18,423 nucleotides of DNA from a virus (lineage: Duplodnaviria; Heunggongvirae; Uroviricota; Caudoviricetes). The stretch is taken from the IMG/VR virus record IMGVR_UViG_2667527959_000011, positions 1 to 18,423 of that record, one strand, 5' to 3'. Positions 12,503 to 17,957 of this stretch are shown here, one piece after another. Every line of letters begins with the position of its first letter. Position 1 is the first letter of the stretch. A program made the translations under genes and the position numbers. The notes beneath the pieces were generated by a model. It was not told the DNA's origin. It did not search any database and saw nothing but the letters and a program-made list of their open reading frames with translations.

Positions 12503-12943
12503 ATGGCCACATTATCTGATACAATAAAACCGAATAAAACATATCTTGAGGCGGTGCTGCGTACGGCGTTGTTAGGAAAGACAGAAGACGAATACGTTGA
12601 TTTCTTCCTGTCAGGGCTACGCGGGCGATTACTGAAAAATCCCCGCCTGTACCGCAGTTATGGCCCATACTGGCCGGAAATTAAAAAATTATTACTGGAG
12701 CGCGGTTATGGTAATTTCGGTCGTCTCGTTGACCGTGACGTTCGCAAAATTTACCGTTATGACCGCCCGGCGCTGACACTCATAGCCGCGACGCTCTACA
12801 GCCAGGAGCGTTTTGATAATGGTCAGATATACTCAGCCTGGCATTTACTGCCAGTGCCTGAAGAAGTTGACGACCAGGACTATGAGTTTGAGTCTTACGA
12901 TTTGGAAGTTGAAGCCTTGGCACAGGCTGGAGAGAAAACTTGA
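12503..12943 (+). CDS. Hypothetical protein, possible Ulx homolog
   Basis: 146-aa ORF immediately downstream of darB; its stop overlaps the start of the next ORF (cTTGA). Assignment by synteny only. Confidence 0.45.
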   Translation: MATLSDTIKPNKTYLEAVLRTALLGKTEDEYVDFFLSGLRGRLLKNPRLYRSYGPYWPEIKKLLLERGYGNFGRLVDRDVRKIYRYDRPALTLIAATLYSQERFDNGQIYSAWHLLPVPEEVDDQDYEFESYDLEVEALAQAGEKT

Positions 12944-13188
12944 AAAAGCGATACTACACAGTAAAGCATGGGACGCTACGAGCATTACAAGAGTTTGCTG
13001 ACAAGCATAACGTTGAGGTGCGCAGGGAAGGGGGAAGTAAAGCTCTGCGTATGTACCGTCCGGATGGGAAATGGCGAACGGTCGTCGATTTCAAAACTAA
13101 CAGCGTTCCCCAGGGCGTCCGTGACCGGGCATTCGAAGAATGGGAGCAGATCATCATAGATAACGCATTGCTCCTGAATGCTGATTAA
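12940..13188 (+). CDS. lxc: Lxc-like small protein (C1 co-repressor)
   Basis: 82-aa ORF with TTG start overlapping the upstream stop and GGAG 8 nt upstream. Size and position match P1 lxc. Confidence 0.5.
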   Translation: MKKRYYTVKHGTLRALQEFADKHNVEVRREGGSKALRMYRPDGKWRTVVDFKTNSVPQGVRDRAFEEWEQIIIDNALLLNAD

Positions 13189-13225
13189 TTTATCGGGCAG
13201 TTTTATCTGCCCGATAAATTTTTAT
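13187..13225. terminator. Hairpin terminator between convergent lxc and the SIR2-like gene
   Basis: Perfect 14-bp inverted repeat AATTTATCGGGCAG (13187-13200) / CTGCCCGATAAATT (13207-13220) with 6-nt loop, then a T-run. Arm 1 overlaps the lxc stop codon. Confidence 0.65.
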
Positions 13226-13234
13226 CGACCACAA

Positions 13235-14542
13235 TTACACTATATTCTTAACTATAAGGTTGGCGTCCTTCAAGGTGCCTAATGTTTCAATGTGGTTTTT
13301 TATCATTAATCTATTTGAGGCAATTATTGCAGGCCATCGTGTTTCCCAAGCTCTGTAAGCATACCAAGAAACTCCCCAATTCCTTTCTTTACTCATATGA
13401 CCCATCGAGTATTCAACTGCGTCTAAATATGTTTTTTCATACTTAGTATTGCTAACCTCTATGATGCTTCCAAAATATATAAGCCATTTTGCCAACTGTT
13501 CATATTGCTCCCACGCTCCGTTATTCCTTGTTAACTTTCTCTTTTTTTCTATTATCCTTTCGAAAAGAGAAACGACTTTATCATCATTCCAATCTAAACC
13601 TTCCGATATAATTGATGATATAATTTGATAAAATGAATCCTCTAATTTAAGATATTCATTTTTATAAGTATAAGCCCCCGAAACAACTTTTCTGATATTT
13701 TCGCGCGCTCTTTCAATGATGTCTTTAATGAGAGATATCTTATAACTTAATCGACTAAAGAAACAATCTATTTCTGTATTGTCAATTACCCTTATACCAA
13801 AGCAATAGAAGTAATAATCCTTCATATCTTGACTTACTTTGTTGCGAGATATCAAAAAGATATTAGAGCACAGGGCATTATTTTTCGAAAATTTTTTATA
13901 GTCATTTATAATTGCTTTAAGATTTGTGTCGCTTAAAGAATACCCTAATATCGCAACTGTATTTTCATGCAGCATCGTACTAAGTTTTCGTGAAAAATAA
14001 GTATCGGAATTTATAAATCTGAAGTAATCATCTGAAGTGACAATCATATTTTTTGGCGAATCAATAGAGCCATGAACATGATATATTTTCACCTTGGATG
14101 GATACTTTGGAATTGGCAGGCCGGGCGTGATAGACTGTACACTTTCATCTCCAACCAAGCATTCAGCCAACTTGTCATAATTTGTTGTAATGACACGGAA
14201 TGAGTTTTTTTGGAAAAAATCTTTTATATTTGATATGTCTTCTCCAAGTTGAATTGGAGATATGATGTCAACAATTTCATCATAAATCGACTTACCCTCA
14301 ATATTGAGCTTCAAAGATAGTATTTGTGCGGCTTCTTCAAGACTCAGTGCTGGTGGTTTATCATCAGGGAATAACGTGTCTTCCAACTTTTTGGCATTGT
14401 GAACTTTGCTGCAAACTTTTTTTAATAGTTCCTTCCACGTTGGAGCTTCACCGTTCGAGACTGCCTTTGAAAAGCCAGTCCCGGTAAATAGACAAAGCCT
14501 GCTTGTAGCGGCAGCGTATGCTAACTCAACATATTCGCTCAT
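13235..14542 (-). CDS. SIR2-like (SIR2_2/DUF4020-type) protein, candidate NAD+-depleting defence effector
   Basis: 435-aa ORF with GGAG SD 8 nt upstream of the ATG. Motifs: LFTGTGFS...APTWKELL near the N-terminus, VITTNYDKL, KIYHVHGS, MIVTSDDY and VAILGYSLSD. No CxxC...CxxC zinc ribbon. About 180 C-terminal residues have no recognisable motif. Gene is markedly AT-rich compared with its flanks. Confidence 0.8.
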   Translation of the reverse strand: MSEYVELAYAAATSRLCLFTGTGFSKAVSNGEAPTWKELLKKVCSKVHNAKKLEDTLFPDDKPPALSLEEAAQILSLKLNIEGKSIYDEIVDIISPIQLGEDISNIKDFFQKNSFRVITTNYDKLAECLVGDESVQSITPGLPIPKYPSKVKIYHVHGSIDSPKNMIVTSDDYFRFINSDTYFSRKLSTMLHENTVAILGYSLSDTNLKAIINDYKKFSKNNALCSNIFLISRNKVSQDMKDYYFYCFGIRVIDNTEIDCFFSRLSYKISLIKDIIERARENIRKVVSGAYTYKNEYLKLEDSFYQIISSIISEGLDWNDDKVVSLFERIIEKKRKLTRNNGAWEQYEQLAKWLIYFGSIIEVSNTKYEKTYLDAVEYSMGHMSKERNWGVSWYAYRAWETRWPAIIASNRLMIKNHIETLGTLKDANLIVKNIV

Positions 14543-14597
14543 TACTTACTCCATTTACTTATAGTTCTATGGAGAAGTATACCCTAATGCATTGACG

Positions 14598-14625
14598 TTT
14601 ATAGATAATTTCCTTTTCCAGTTAA
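14598..14625 (-). promoter_or_regulatory. Candidate sigma70 promoter for the SIR2-like gene
   Basis: On the minus strand: TTAACT, 16-bp spacer, TATAAA. The -10 overlaps the stop codon of the upstream mat-like gene. Confidence 0.3.
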
Positions 14626-15240
14626 CTCCCCTTTAGGCACCCGTTTTTGTGCCAGTGTTTGGGTTCCGCGAATTATGTTAATCAGAGGGCTTAGTAACGA
14701 TGATTCCTGGCGGGCATCAACTTCTCCTGCCATTGCCCTAATGTAGTCGGCGCTTGCAACGTTGTTATATTCCGTTGCGAAGCAGCATAACAACGTCAGA
14801 ACGTGCTCTGTCGTTATTTCGCTCCAGTTGATGTTGAAAAATTCATCGCCTTTTTTGTCATGTTCGGAATCGAAGATGCTTTGGTGAAGGATGTATTTGC
14901 CGGATTCCTTGCGCGGTAACTTGATCGCTTTCTGGCGTTCCAATTCCTTGTAAATCTGCATCGCTTCAATCAGTACCGGTCTGCCGTTCATGAAGGGATC
15001 ACGCAACCTTACACGCTGGCCAACTCGACCGGTAATAAAGCTGTTTTCCTCTTCCACCAGCACGATAAAACCCTTTTCCTCTTTTTCTCGCAATTCGCGC
15101 AGCAGCTGGAGTTCCATATCGCGGCGGCGTTCAGGGTAGCTGGTCCGCTCAGCCATTATCAGCTCATTGTTGATCCATGCGGCAGTCATTGACGCCGGTT
15201 TGCCGACGCTCATCGAAACAACGCATATTTTCTTATCCAT
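14599..15240 (-). CDS. Hypothetical protein, possible Mat homolog
   Basis: 213 aa from the ATG at 15240. The ORF track extends it to a GTG at 15267, which would place a terminator-like hairpin inside the coding region. Assignment by position between ref and the res-mod slot. Confidence 0.45.
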   Translation of the reverse strand: MDKKICVVSMSVGKPASMTAAWINNELIMAERTSYPERRRDMELQLLRELREKEEKGFIVLVEEENSFITGRVGQRVRLRDPFMNGRPVLIEAMQIYKELERQKAIKLPRKESGKYILHQSIFDSEHDKKGDEFFNINWSEITTEHVLTLLCCFATEYNNVASADYIRAMAGEVDARQESSLLSPLINIIRGTQTLAQKRVPKGELTGKGNYL

Positions 15241-15250
15241 AGCGCCCCTA

Positions 15251-15278
15251 CAAAAAAGAAAAGCCACCAGCGGCGGCT
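15251..15278 (-). terminator. Terminator-like hairpin plus U-tract in the leader of the mat-like gene
   Basis: Minus strand reads AGCCGCC-gct-GGUGGCU (one G-U pair) followed by UUUUCUUUUUU, ending about 10 nt before the ATG at 15240. Confidence 0.4.
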
Positions 15279-15380
15279 TAGCAATACAACTGAAGGTAGC
15301 GCCCGGTACTCAGACTGTGCCGTCCATGGAATATTTGAAAAGGGATCCATCCGTACCGGGCGTGTGATGATTCTGACTGA

Positions 15381-15390
15381 AGTCACTTGT
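15381..15390 (-). promoter_or_regulatory. Second copy of the 10-bp ACAAGTGACT motif, upstream of the mat-like gene
   Basis: Exact repeat of the 5680-5689 motif. An upstream TTGACA (minus strand) is present and a 10-bp inverted repeat (15300-15309 / 15353-15362) lies downstream in the leader. Confidence 0.3.
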
Positions 15391-15428
15391 CAGTTGTCAA
15401 TCATTTATCATTAAAAATAATATATTTA

Positions 15429-15991
15429 TTAGTGCATGATGTTTGCCATCTCATAGGCGTCAGCCAGTAACTCCATCTCTGACTTGTTCAGTAGGGTGAA
15501 TTCTTTCTTGCCTCCAACCACACCATCGGCATGAACAGGGACCAGCCAGGGGTATTTTGCTCTTACTTCAGTCGGTGCTGCATGCTGGTGGTGCCATCTC
15601 TACAAAGTGGCAATTGCTTTTTATGACAACCCGGCGCGGTACGACCGGCGATATGGTGCAGAGACACCTCATTAGATATTACTCCATGCATATAGCAGGC
15701 AATGCAGGGGAGAGTGCCAAGAGCATTGGCGATGCGCCGTTCCTCCGCCGTTGGTGTTCTCCCCTTCAAGCCACGAGATTTTATTTTTACCGCGCTTTTC
15801 CGCGTTTTGCTGGCTGGTGGGCGCTCTTTCTGTTTAGCGATACGGCGGTCGATAGTATCCCGCATTTTCTGATATTGAGATTCTCGCCAGACCGGATCAG
15901 CCAACTTCTCCCGTTGCCGAGCGATCGCTCGTTCTCTGGCTGCCTTCTGCCACTTGCGGCACTGTTCAATTTTTTGTTCGATTGTTTTCAT
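15429..15991 (-). pseudogene. ref: Ref (HNH-type recombination enhancement endonuclease) with a frameshift
   Basis: N-terminal 131 codons (MKTIEQKIEQ...LPLCR) are in one frame; the remaining 55 codons (WHHQHAAPTEV...ANIMH, stop at 15429-15431) are open in the -1 frame. The break falls in the minus-strand run TGTAGAGATGG (forward ~15597-15603). Removing two bases restores a 186-aa product. Confidence 0.8.
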
Positions 15992-15997
15992 ATGGTC

Positions 15998-16024
15998 AAA
16001 AAAAAGGCGGCCTAATAGCCGCCT
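15998..16024 (-). terminator. Intrinsic terminator 6 nt upstream of the ref start codon
   Basis: Minus strand reads AGGCGGC-uauuag-GCCGCCU followed by seven U (forward A-run 15998-16004), then gacc and the ATG. Confidence 0.6.
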
Positions 16025-16083
16025 ATGATGTCAAGGAGTGAAGTAATGGCAACGTCTTCGTAGTTGACAAAAACTGCGACTCA

Positions 16084-16107
16084 ATTATAGCAACCAATTA
16101 GAGCAAT
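16084..16107 (-). promoter_or_regulatory. C1 operator(s) overlapping the presumptive ref promoter
   Basis: Minus strand reads ATTGCTCTAATTGGTTGCTATAATTGA. The first 11 bp match the operator consensus, a second TTGCTATAAT half-site overlaps, and a perfect TATAAT -10 is at forward 16084-16089. Confidence 0.55.
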
Positions 16108-16212
16108 TAAAGTTGTTTATTTATCGCGAATCACATTTTTTCACTTCAGTACCTGTGTGCTATACTCCTTCTTGATTGATTGGATGCGGAATACAAACCC
16201 GCTCTTTTGTGC

Positions 16213-16244
16213 AGCCTGGCTCCTTGCCAGGCTTTTTTTTATTT
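16213..16244 (+). terminator. Plus-strand intrinsic terminator overlapping the cra stop codon
   Basis: AGCCTGGC-tcctt-GCCAGGCT followed by a run of T ending at 16240. On the minus strand no U-tract follows, so it is directional. Confidence 0.6.
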
Positions 16245-16550
16245 CATCATGGAAGCTGTTAACGCTTTGGACCTTGCTGAACTGATTGAGAGGGCTTTGT
16301 CAACGTGCCCCAAAAATTCGCCAAACTCAGACATCACTTTAGCAAAACCGCGCCGTGCTTCTTCCTCGGTGGCATTCATCACGAAATGTTCAGCACCACG
16401 CATACTTTTGACAGGGAACGCAACGGATATTGAATCAATATCAGGCATTCTATCGCTCAGCTTTACAGTGACAATGACGGCTGGCGACTGAATATTAGTG
16501 CTTACAGACAGCACTACATATTTTCCGTCGATGTTGAAATCCTTTCGCAT
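16239..16550 (-). CDS. Hypothetical protein downstream of cre, possible Cra
   Basis: 103-aa ORF of balanced composition between cre and ref. The overlapping plus-strand ORF (16180..16491) runs through the terminator hairpin and is considered spurious. Confidence 0.45.
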   Translation of the reverse strand: MRKDFNIDGKYVVLSVSTNIQSPAVIVTVKLSDRMPDIDSISVAFPVKSMRGAEHFVMNATEEEARRGFAKVMSEFGEFLGHVDKALSISSARSKALTASMMK

Positions 16551-16600: not shown

Positions 16601-17632
16601 CTAATCGCCATCTTCCAGCAGGCGCACCATTGCCCCTGTTTCACTATCCAGGTTACGGATATAGTTCATGACAATATTTACGTTGGTCCAGCCACCAGCT
16701 TGCATGATCTCCGGTATTGAAACTCCGGCACGGGCCATATCTCGCGCGGCTCCGACACGGGCACTGTGTCCAGACCAGGCCAGGTACCTCTGGCCAGAGT
16801 CATCCTTAGCCCCGTAAATCAATCGGTGAGTTGCTTCAAAAATCCCTTCCAGGGCGCGAGTTGATAGCTGGCTGGTGGGTGATGGCGAGGCAACACCATT
16901 TTTTCTGACCCGGCAAAACAAGTAGTTATTCGGATCATCAGCCACACCAGAGACAGAAATCCATCGCTCGACCAGTTTAGTTACCCCCAGGCTAAGTGCC
17001 TTCTCTACACCCGCGGTACTAACCAGCGTTTTCGTTCTGCCAATATGGATTAACATTCTCCCACCGTCTGTACGTGAGATATCTTTAACCCTGATCCTGG
17101 CAATTTCGGCTATACGTAACAGGGTGTTATAAGCGATCCCCAGAAATGCCAGATTACGTATGTCCTGGCAGCGATCGCTATTTTCCATGAGTGAACGAAC
17201 CTGGTCGAAATCAGTGCGTTCGAACGCCAATGCCTGTTTTGCACGTTCACCGGCATCAACGTTTTCTTTTCGAATCCGCCGCATGACCAGTGAAACAGCA
17301 TTGCTGTCACTTGGTCGTGGCAGCCCGGACCGACGATGAAGCATGTTTAGCTGGCCCAAATGTTGCTGGATAGTTTTTACTGCCAGACCGCGCGCCTGAA
17401 GATATAGAAGATAATCGCGAACATCTTCAGGTTTTGCGGGAAACCATTTCCGGTTATTCAACTTGCACCATGCCGCCCATGACCGGCAAACGGACAGAAG
17501 CATTTTCCAGGTATGCTCAGAAAACGCCTGGCGATCCCTGAACATGTCCATCAGGTTCTTGCGAACCTCATCACTCGTTGCATCGACCGGCAATGCAGGC
17601 AAATTTTGGTGTACGGTCAGTAAATTGGACAT
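16601..17632 (-). CDS. cre: Cre tyrosine site-specific recombinase
   Basis: 343-aa protein starting MSNLLTVHQNLPALPVDATSDEVRKNLMDMFRDRQAFSEHTWK and ending MVRLLEDGD. Near-identical to Cre as I remember it, with about three substitutions. Confidence 0.98.
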   Translation of the reverse strand: MSNLLTVHQNLPALPVDATSDEVRKNLMDMFRDRQAFSEHTWKMLLSVCRSWAAWCKLNNRKWFPAKPEDVRDYLLYLQARGLAVKTIQQHLGQLNMLHRRSGLPRPSDSNAVSLVMRRIRKENVDAGERAKQALAFERTDFDQVRSLMENSDRCQDIRNLAFLGIAYNTLLRIAEIARIRVKDISRTDGGRMLIHIGRTKTLVSTAGVEKALSLGVTKLVERWISVSGVADDPNNYLFCRVRKNGVASPSPTSQLSTRALEGIFEATHRLIYGAKDDSGQRYLAWSGHSARVGAARDMARAGVSIPEIMQAGGWTNVNIVMNYIRNLDSETGAMVRLLEDGD

Positions 17633-17639
17633 TTAACAC

Positions 17640-17861
17640 TCAGATAATGGTTTTAAGTAAAGTGTACAGGATCGGCTCTGCCTTTACCTGTTTATGGTTC
17701 TCGTCATAGAAACGCCAACGACCGCGACTGCGTTCTATCTTTTCTTCACCGCGCGATAATGACAGTTGACAACTATCACGATCAAACCCTTTTGCCCGCC
17801 AGTAACCACGATTTTTCTCAAGCTCAAGATGAGTGGACACTTTAGCAGCTGAATATCCCAT
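17640..17861 (-). CDS. Hypothetical 73-aa upstream ORF in the cre leader
   Basis: AGGTG SD 4 nt upstream of the ATG. Its stop (TGA, 17640-17642) lies 7 nt before the cre ATG, which has no strong SD of its own. Confidence 0.35.
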   Translation of the reverse strand: MGYSAAKVSTHLELEKNRGYWRAKGFDRDSCQLSLSRGEEKIERSRGRWRFYDENHKQVKAEPILYTLLKTII

Positions 17862-17957
17862 TTTTCACCTCTGATTGATTGGTGGTGCTAAGTGCGCTAC
17901 GCGAAATCTGTAGGACTGACACCGCCAATTTTTCACAGATTTTACGTAGCGCAACCT

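Follow-up and report, generated by a model that had tools for sequence, protein, structure and literature searches.

An 18,423-nt (18.4-kb) stretch of DNA, referred to below as the window, led us, on balance, to regard positions 16138-16241 as an unannotated small RNA (sRNA) gene of about 67 nt that would be carried throughout the P1 phage-plasmid family and act by base pairing. That such a plus-strand transcript exists is somewhat more likely than not, judging from an extended -10 element, an intrinsic terminator and a conserved island that spans both (Table 1). Translated open reading frames (ORFs) and BLAST identified the window as a P1-like phage-plasmid whose cre-c8-ref region is 97% identical to that of phage P1 (BLAST). 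The 103-aa gene at 16239-16550 had been labelled cra in a preliminary description of this DNA; the P1 GenBank record calls it c8 (“establishment of lysogeny, putative”) and gives the name cra to a 73-aa ORF that lies upstream of cre, although at least one other record uses cra for the 103-aa gene. Diversity at codon positions 1, 2 and 3 of c8 (0.065, 0.018 and 0.144) marks the minus-strand frame as a real gene. The c8-ref spacer of the P1 record carries two annotated ref promoters and the C1 operator Oref; nothing is annotated there on the strand of the predicted RNA, and PGAP-annotated Escherichia coli plasmids hold no RNA gene at the locus. Full-text literature searches, which did not include the main P1 genome paper, returned no description of a transcript from it, and a published P1 transcriptome study quantified annotated genes only and does not mention a strand-specific protocol.

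Table 1 Features of the predicted RNA locus and its surroundings, in window coordinates.
Feature	Position	Strand	Remarks
ref	15563-15991	-	
TTGACA hexamer of the preliminary description	16064-16069	+	Inside the minus-strand ref leader
Oref, C1 repressor operator, ATTGCTCTAATTGGTTG	16091-16107	-	P1 GenBank annotation; overlaps divergent ref promoter P2ref
-35-like hexamer TTTTCA	16138-16143	+	17 bp upstream of the -10
Extended -10 TGcTATACT	16158-16166	+	Putative function, from sequence
Predicted sRNA, ~65-68 nt	16174-16241	+	Ends predicted from promoter and terminator
Candidate seed GAUUGAUUGG	16174-16183	+	5' single-stranded end
Stem-loop 1, GCGG / AAUACAAAC / CCGC	16186-16202	+	
U-rich single-stranded linker UCUUUUGUGC	16203-16212	+	Just 5' of the terminator
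Intrinsic terminator	16213-16240	+	8-bp stem, 5-nt loop UCCUU, U-run
c8 (103 aa; cra in the preliminary description)	16239-16550	-	Convergent with the predicted RNA
cre	16601-17632	-	
cra (73-aa ORF upstream of cre)	17640-17861		P1 GenBank nomenclature
Candidate target CCAAUCAAUC (cra-cre leader)	17873-17882	-	Immediately 5' of the cra Shine-Dalgarno; P1 186-195

Two further features set the window apart from P1. A 435-aa protein with a SIR2_2 (SIR2-like) domain is encoded on the minus strand at 13235-14542, in the slot of the P1 res-mod restriction genes, and is probably a different defence cargo in a variable slot. Within ref, at about 15600-15601 on the minus strand, a 2-bp insertion relative to P1 (TGTAGAGATGG versus TGT--AGATGG) shifts the frame after about codon 126 and yields a 142-aa product in place of that of the annotated 561-nt P1 coding sequence, the remainder of the ref frame persisting as an ORF at 15429-15521; ref here is either a pseudogene or the site of a sequencing error.

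The 3' end of the proposed gene would be set by the terminator, whose hairpin (16213-16233) reads AGCCTGGC / TCCTT / GCCAGGCT and is followed by T residues up to 16240 and then by ATTT. A lenient scan found terminator-like sites in the window at chance level (5 against 4.0 expected), whereas under strict criteria (a perfect 8-bp stem, at least 5 G-C pairs and at least 7 T in the next 8 positions) the site at 16213 was unique on both strands of the 18.4-kb window, and 60 dinucleotide shuffles contained none. On the minus strand A8 precedes the hairpin and GCACAAAAG comes after it, and the structure therefore terminates plus-strand transcription only. Relatives show no change in the stem and differ in the loop at 16221 and 16222; their T-run, which provides a U8 tail in the window, ranges from 5 to 9 residues and is never lost. 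The preliminary description had reported a plus-strand terminator that no gene feeds into, and its coordinates were right. The nearest upstream plus-strand gene ends at 12943, 3.3 kb before the terminator, and no strong plus-strand terminator was found between 12943 and 16213. As in free-standing sRNA genes, the terminator on the RNA's strand serves no upstream protein gene.

Transcription would start from the extended -10 element, in which TG stands one base upstream of the -10 and TATACT lies 47 nt before the terminator hairpin. The TTTTCA-N17-TATACT arrangement proposed earlier is indeed located at 16138-16166, and its TATACT is kept in 64 of 64 related sequences, with TG in 62 of 64; TGcTATACT also occurs in P1, on the complementary strand at 1930-1902. 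TTTTCA varies more than the -10 (16143 A>T in 10/64 and 16142 C>T in 3/64) and is replaced by the end of a Tn3-family transposon in two relatives (L039 and L073), a weak conservation that fits an extended -10 promoter with little -35 dependence. Because promoter hexamer matches occur at chance level in a scan of the window (6 found versus 5.9 expected), the promoter call rests on conservation and not on the match itself. The promoter is divergent from the C1-controlled P2ref, and its -35 lies 31 bp from the end of Oref, a spacing that makes direct C1 control improbable; from this divergence and distance we infer that the RNA would be made constitutively, lysogens included. A TTGACA hexamer, which had been put forward as the promoter of a form of about 150 nt, is present where it was reported but was rejected as a promoter: its best -10 partner is TATAGC (16086-16091), replaced by TATAAC or TATATC in relatives, and all of these are without the final T, leaving no credible partner. 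The conservation of TTGACA may be explained by its location in the ref leader.

Initiation 7-9 nt past the -10 would place the RNA start at 16173-16175, with the 3' end falling within the U-run. The sequence so predicted, GAUUGAUUGGAUGCGGAAUACAAACCCGCUCUUUUGUGCAGCCUGGCUCCUUGCCAGGCUUUUUUUU, is identical in P1 at 1894-1827 and has a minimum free energy of -23.2 kcal/mol (z = -3.0), with none of 200 shuffles folding as well. From 5' to 3', the predicted fold comprises a free 5' end, a small stem-loop, a U-rich linker (unpaired probability 0.73-0.95) and the terminator hairpin. Hfq-dependent sRNAs usually show the order free 5' seed, stem-loop, U-rich linker, terminator hairpin and long U-tail, and their internal Hfq-binding module is usually a U-rich stretch just 5' of the terminator. 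The sequence features that generally mark this class, namely a terminator hairpin, a tail of at least 6-7 U and an upstream unpaired U-rich stretch, are all found here, and the predicted layout suggests Hfq assistance. A search of Rfam 15 at a permissive E-value gave no family at its gathering threshold; the best overlapping hits were terminator-shaped generic matches, with bit scores (thresholds) of 22.6 (46.6) for SorX, 22 (70) for Hrs12, 17.6 (42) for GcvB and 15.6 (45) for GadY. Sequence changes in stem-loop 1 cluster in the loop (16190, 16192, 16197 and an insertion after 16198); in its stem, 16199 C>U leaves a G-U pair on the plus strand and 16201 G>A breaks a pair.

Coding potential was considered on both strands. 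The preliminary description had named a single, implausible plus-strand ORF; two are present (16157-16285 and 16180-16491), so that its ‘only’ falls, whereas the implausibility is borne out. Both run across the T-run, whose length of 5-9 in relatives shifts the frame and rules out both as genes. A small minus-strand ORF behind a Shine-Dalgarno-like AAGGAG (complement of 16165-16170) was rejected as well, as no start codon lies in range.

To place the unit among its relatives we compiled 83 c8-carrying loci from viral and genome collections together with the P1 and P7 records, which gave 65 distinct c8-ref sequences. Diversity, 0.10-0.20 in the spacer, drops to 0.007 at the extended -10; the RNA body has 0.015, the terminator 0.004 and the T-run positions 0. 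When 73 distinct loci were aligned over 3.3 kb, no non-coding stretch was better conserved than an island at 16150-16290, whose diversity is about 0.010-0.015 against 0.09-0.14 in the flanks on either side and 0.144 at c8 third positions; the island equals the best-conserved part of cre. The 11 variable positions in the predicted RNA are biased towards loops, which hold 6 of them in 14 nt, with the other 5 spread over 54 nt (Fisher p = 0.007). The 96-bp element occurs singly in 695 of 5426 complete E. coli genomes, nearly always on a plasmid, and likewise in 697 plasmids of five genera (Escherichia, Salmonella, Klebsiella, Shigella and Cronobacter), 617 of which match it at 95% identity or more. 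The short plus-strand RNA suggested earlier thus survives in its promoter-to-terminator form, which the invariant -10, the island, the loop-biased variation and the spread over some 700 plasmids all favour, and not as a transcript of about 150 nt.

Conservation of this kind has limits as evidence. Twelve consensus pairs included no compensatory change, the sole pair change being G-C to A-U at the outer pair 16183-16204 in one sequence, and the sequences are too alike for the covariation analysis to be informative. A search for distant c8 homologues gave none below 82% identity, from which c8 and the RNA appear confined to the P1 lineage; all relatives being close, part of the island's conservation could stem from recombination or a recent spread. 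Nor does the island stop at the terminator: it continues for about 48 nt into c8 (16242-16289, the last 16 codons), where third-position diversity is 0.035 versus 0.14-0.20 in the rest of the gene, 4-6 times lower; this points to an extra constraint at the c8 3' end that is unaccounted for by the RNA model.

Mobile elements have entered the region repeatedly. Tn3-family ends adjoin the c8-ref spacer at about 16150/16154 (L039 and L073) and further left in L021, and three phage records (MH422554 and MH445381 among them) have c8 split at about 16260 by insertion sequence (IS) elements, which makes the c8-ref region a recurrent insertion site. Apparent recombination breakpoints beside the RNA proved to be these same Tn3-family ends (L039, L073, L021) and IS insertions (MH422554, MH445381), and not module boundaries. 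The insertions fall just outside the promoter-to-terminator unit, an observation that is anecdotal.

The predicted RNA is exactly complementary to 68 nt beginning with the c8 stop codon, which its U-run overlaps, so that the coding overlap is at most 3 nt. Downstream of that stop codon the only terminator-like hairpin found on the minus strand is at 16024-16005, just before ref, and the c8 mRNA should therefore carry the complementary stretch within a 3' untranslated region (UTR) of about 235 nt. Convergent transcription geometry and full complementarity to the 3' portion of an adjacent mRNA, as in OOP-type antisense RNAs, are thus present, but overlap with the target coding sequence is confined to the stop codon. 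An antisense relation to the cra 3' end and the ref leader had been proposed; overlap with the stop codon and 3' UTR of that gene, now c8, stands, whereas the ref leader drops out, because the annotated ref promoters start left of about 16080 and a 67-nt RNA misses the leader. The hairpin at 16005-16024 (minus strand; P1 2046-2063) is itself a strong terminator-like structure with T8 on the ref-sense strand, 13 nt before the ref start codon, downstream of the C1-controlled P2ref and overlapping the region in which P1ref starts. The c8 transcript could end at this hairpin and transcripts from P2ref could be attenuated there, an attenuation that P1ref transcripts starting inside the hairpin would escape.

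Beyond c8, the free 5' end offers a candidate seed for action in trans. Positions 16174-16182 are invariant in all relatives, and nucleotides 1-8 have unpaired probabilities of 0.66-0.99. Searching P1 for targets by exact k-mer matching and by a scan of translation start regions, we found 5 copies of the seed complement CCAATCAATC against about 0.35 expected, a copy number that only 0.064% of distinct P1 10-mers reach. Among the four non-self copies, three are sense-oriented and lie within about 30 nt of start codons, and the remaining one is antisense, inside dbn. The cra copy lies just 5' of the cra Shine-Dalgarno, with the predicted seed duplex at -21 to -10 of the cra start codon; the pmgT-operon copy lies in a leader under C1 control (operator OpmgT/Op88), between a 5' hairpin and the Shine-Dalgarno of a 28-aa ORF (orf28); and the pmgS copy covers codons 7-10. 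Predicted seed duplex energies are -16.6 kcal/mol for orf28, -15.0 for cra and -13.3 for pmgS, and duplexes of -13 kcal/mol or below occur in 3 of 97 annotated P1 start regions versus 0.4% of random windows. All of these target statistics are post hoc, and their strength is modest (p of about 0.01 for start-region enrichment). ref was rejected as a seed target, its duplex being weak (-7.2 kcal/mol).

Conservation of the target sites is uninformative, because the surrounding blocks are conserved anyway (pmgT-leader and pmgS DNA equally so). The cra site is present in 65 of 73 related loci; the other 8 have a divergent leader allele without the site, their seed being unchanged. Around this site (window 17840-17930) the cra leader and 5' end fall into two sharply distinct alleles, split 65 versus 8 over the 73 loci (L004, L019 and L076 among the loci), and only the common allele carries CCAATCAATC. 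Enrichment of a 10-mer can also have other causes, because ACAAAAGAGC, the complement of the U-rich linker (nt 28-37), is likewise over-represented and lies within coding regions: it has 6 copies in the P1 genome (L088, L089), inside ban, dmt, c1 and the duplicated U/U' tail-fibre genes, an excess that may reflect purine-rich codon usage. The trans-acting seed model, which the preliminary description did not contain, is in our view a tentative proposal with odds clearly against it. The example change GAUUGAUUGG to GAUUCUUUGG would serve for testing the predicted pairing.

The 28-aa hydrophobic ORF, MNTAFKIIMAAIYFWLFSITFGGIVAHG, is an observation in its own right. It lies at about 84366-84480 of P1 NC_005856 (40627-40738 in L089; also L171), between the C1 operator OpmgT (Op88) and pmgT, has a good Shine-Dalgarno and is unannotated in the P1 reference record. 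It is conserved even where pmgT is only 48% identical, and its product has no PHROG or Pfam match.

Other readings of the locus have to be set against an sRNA gene. The terminator might be there only as an insulator, stopping stray plus-strand transcription before it runs antisense into c8 and cre, the promoter-like hexamers being non-working. Sources of such transcription could be the darB-ulx operon, res-mod in P1 or inserted transposons. The open run from the end of the nearest plus-strand operon at 12943 to 16213, which has no strong plus-strand terminator, would suit such a role, as would the presence of P1 res and mod upstream on the plus strand and the chance frequency of promoter-like matches in the scan. 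We nevertheless hold this to be unlikely: an invariant extended -10 and a near-invariant 40 nt leading to the hairpin go unexplained when adjacent intergenic DNA varies freely, and an insulator would be oddly placed 3.3 kb downstream, with three convergent genes in between. Insulation and an sRNA gene are in any case compatible with each other.

Somewhat less credible again is that the constraint acts on the minus strand, where the hairpins would form a stabilising stem-loop at the c8 mRNA 3' end or UTR, or a processing signal. Its appeal lies in the continuation of the island into the last 16 c8 codons with their depleted third-position diversity, in the good fold of the RNA 16300-16150 (z = -3.1) and in loop-biased variation that is compatible with either strand. 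Single substitutions point both ways, since 16201 G>A leaves a G-U pair on the minus strand only, whereas 16199 and 16204 C>T leave G-U pairs on the plus strand only. Such a signal would have no terminator function on that strand, given the A8 before the hairpin and GCACAAAAG after it; the T-run and the invariant TATACT 47 nt from the hairpin would go unexplained; and the long-range helix predicted for the minus strand uses 16290-16297, which are highly variable. The least probable account, to our minds a quite improbable one, makes the island an incidental linker between mosaic modules, uniform through recombination or recent spread, with the motifs incidental. P1-like genomes are indeed mosaic and sharply variable blocks flank the island, the available relatives are all close, and covariation is absent. 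Against it stand a terminator of a quality unmatched in 60 shuffles of the 18.4 kb, the loop bias of variation inside the island, a T-run that varies in length and is never lost, and transposon and IS insertions that lie just outside the unit (about 16150/16154 and about 16260).

We thus return to an sRNA gene as the preferred explanation, under which host sigma-70 RNA polymerase would start at the extended -10 TGcTATACT, facing away from the C1-repressed ref promoters, begin the transcript near 16174 and end it at the intrinsic terminator, where the U-run and the c8 stop codon overlap. The RNA would act via base pairing, assisted by Hfq. As a preferred addition, its invariant, unpaired 5' end GAUUGAUUGG would act in trans as a seed, pairing with P1 mRNAs in which CCAAUCAAUC lies at the ribosome-binding site or close to it: the cra-cre leader, the pmgT-operon leader 5' of the 28-aa ORF, and pmgS codons 7-10. 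Pairing there would reduce translation of the targets, for example by damping leaky expression in lysogens. That one sRNA combines all of this, acting in trans on the cra-cre leader, the 28-aa membrane peptide and pmgS and also as an antisense RNA to the c8 3' UTR, is speculative and, from sequence evidence, unlikely.

Known systems offer partial parallels. The lambda OOP RNA is a 77-nt antisense RNA, convergent with cII, that has its own constitutive promoter and an intrinsic terminator and overlaps about 55 nt of the cII coding sequence; RNase III-dependent cleavage of the duplex is a further mark of the OOP type. Like OOP, the P1 RNA would be a short phage RNA with a predicted promoter and terminator of its own, convergent with a lysogeny-establishment gene and complementary to the 3' end of its mRNA; unlike OOP, it overlaps only the c8 stop codon, the remainder being 3' UTR, shares no sequence similarity with OOP, and faces a gene whose role in lysogeny is itself only putative. 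P1 already uses base pairing to restrain early or lytic functions, through C4 RNA, which represses icd-ant, and the antisense PaskilA/P53as RNA, both annotated in the P1 record. C4 is processed from the transcript of its own targets and PaskilA RNA overlaps the kilA 5' end, whereas the predicted RNA would be free-standing with a terminator, has no annotated counterpart and shares no sequence with either.

Among the Hfq-dependent, trans-acting prophage sRNAs of enterobacteria, DicF and IpeX are comparable in size (about 50-100 nt), in having a conserved single-stranded seed, a U-rich stretch by the terminator and a long U-tail, and in predicted pairing at ribosome-binding sites; the P1 RNA differs from sRNAs of the DicF/IpeX type in that it has no Rfam family homology and its proposed targets are phage genes, not host genes. 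A small RNA with predicted pairing right before the ribosome-binding site of so short a hydrophobic ORF (28 aa) recalls type I antitoxin RNAs. Those typically have at least 18 nt of complementarity to a toxic-peptide mRNA from the same locus, which was not found here: only 11 nt match the orf28 leader, and the RNA and the 28-aa ORF are not adjacent, lying about 12 kb apart on circular P1 (1827-1894 versus about 84366 of 94800). Taken on its sequence features, the predicted RNA is most likely real, an sRNA of the P1 family that belongs with the antisense or trans-acting sRNAs encoded by phages.

Few phages have been studied as intensively or used as widely as P1, the source of Cre-lox and a vehicle of generalised transduction. 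P1-like phage-plasmids, which frequently bear resistance genes, are present in about 13% of complete E. coli genomes. The GenBank records examined and the literature searched contain no conserved regulatory RNA beside cre. If real, the sRNA would be a new player in P1 gene control, possibly including Cre expression, and would also point to the unannotated 28-aa peptide gene. If the proposed mechanism is true, it would add a second, RNA-based layer to the control of P1 lysogeny and maintenance, beside the C1 repressor and C4 RNA.
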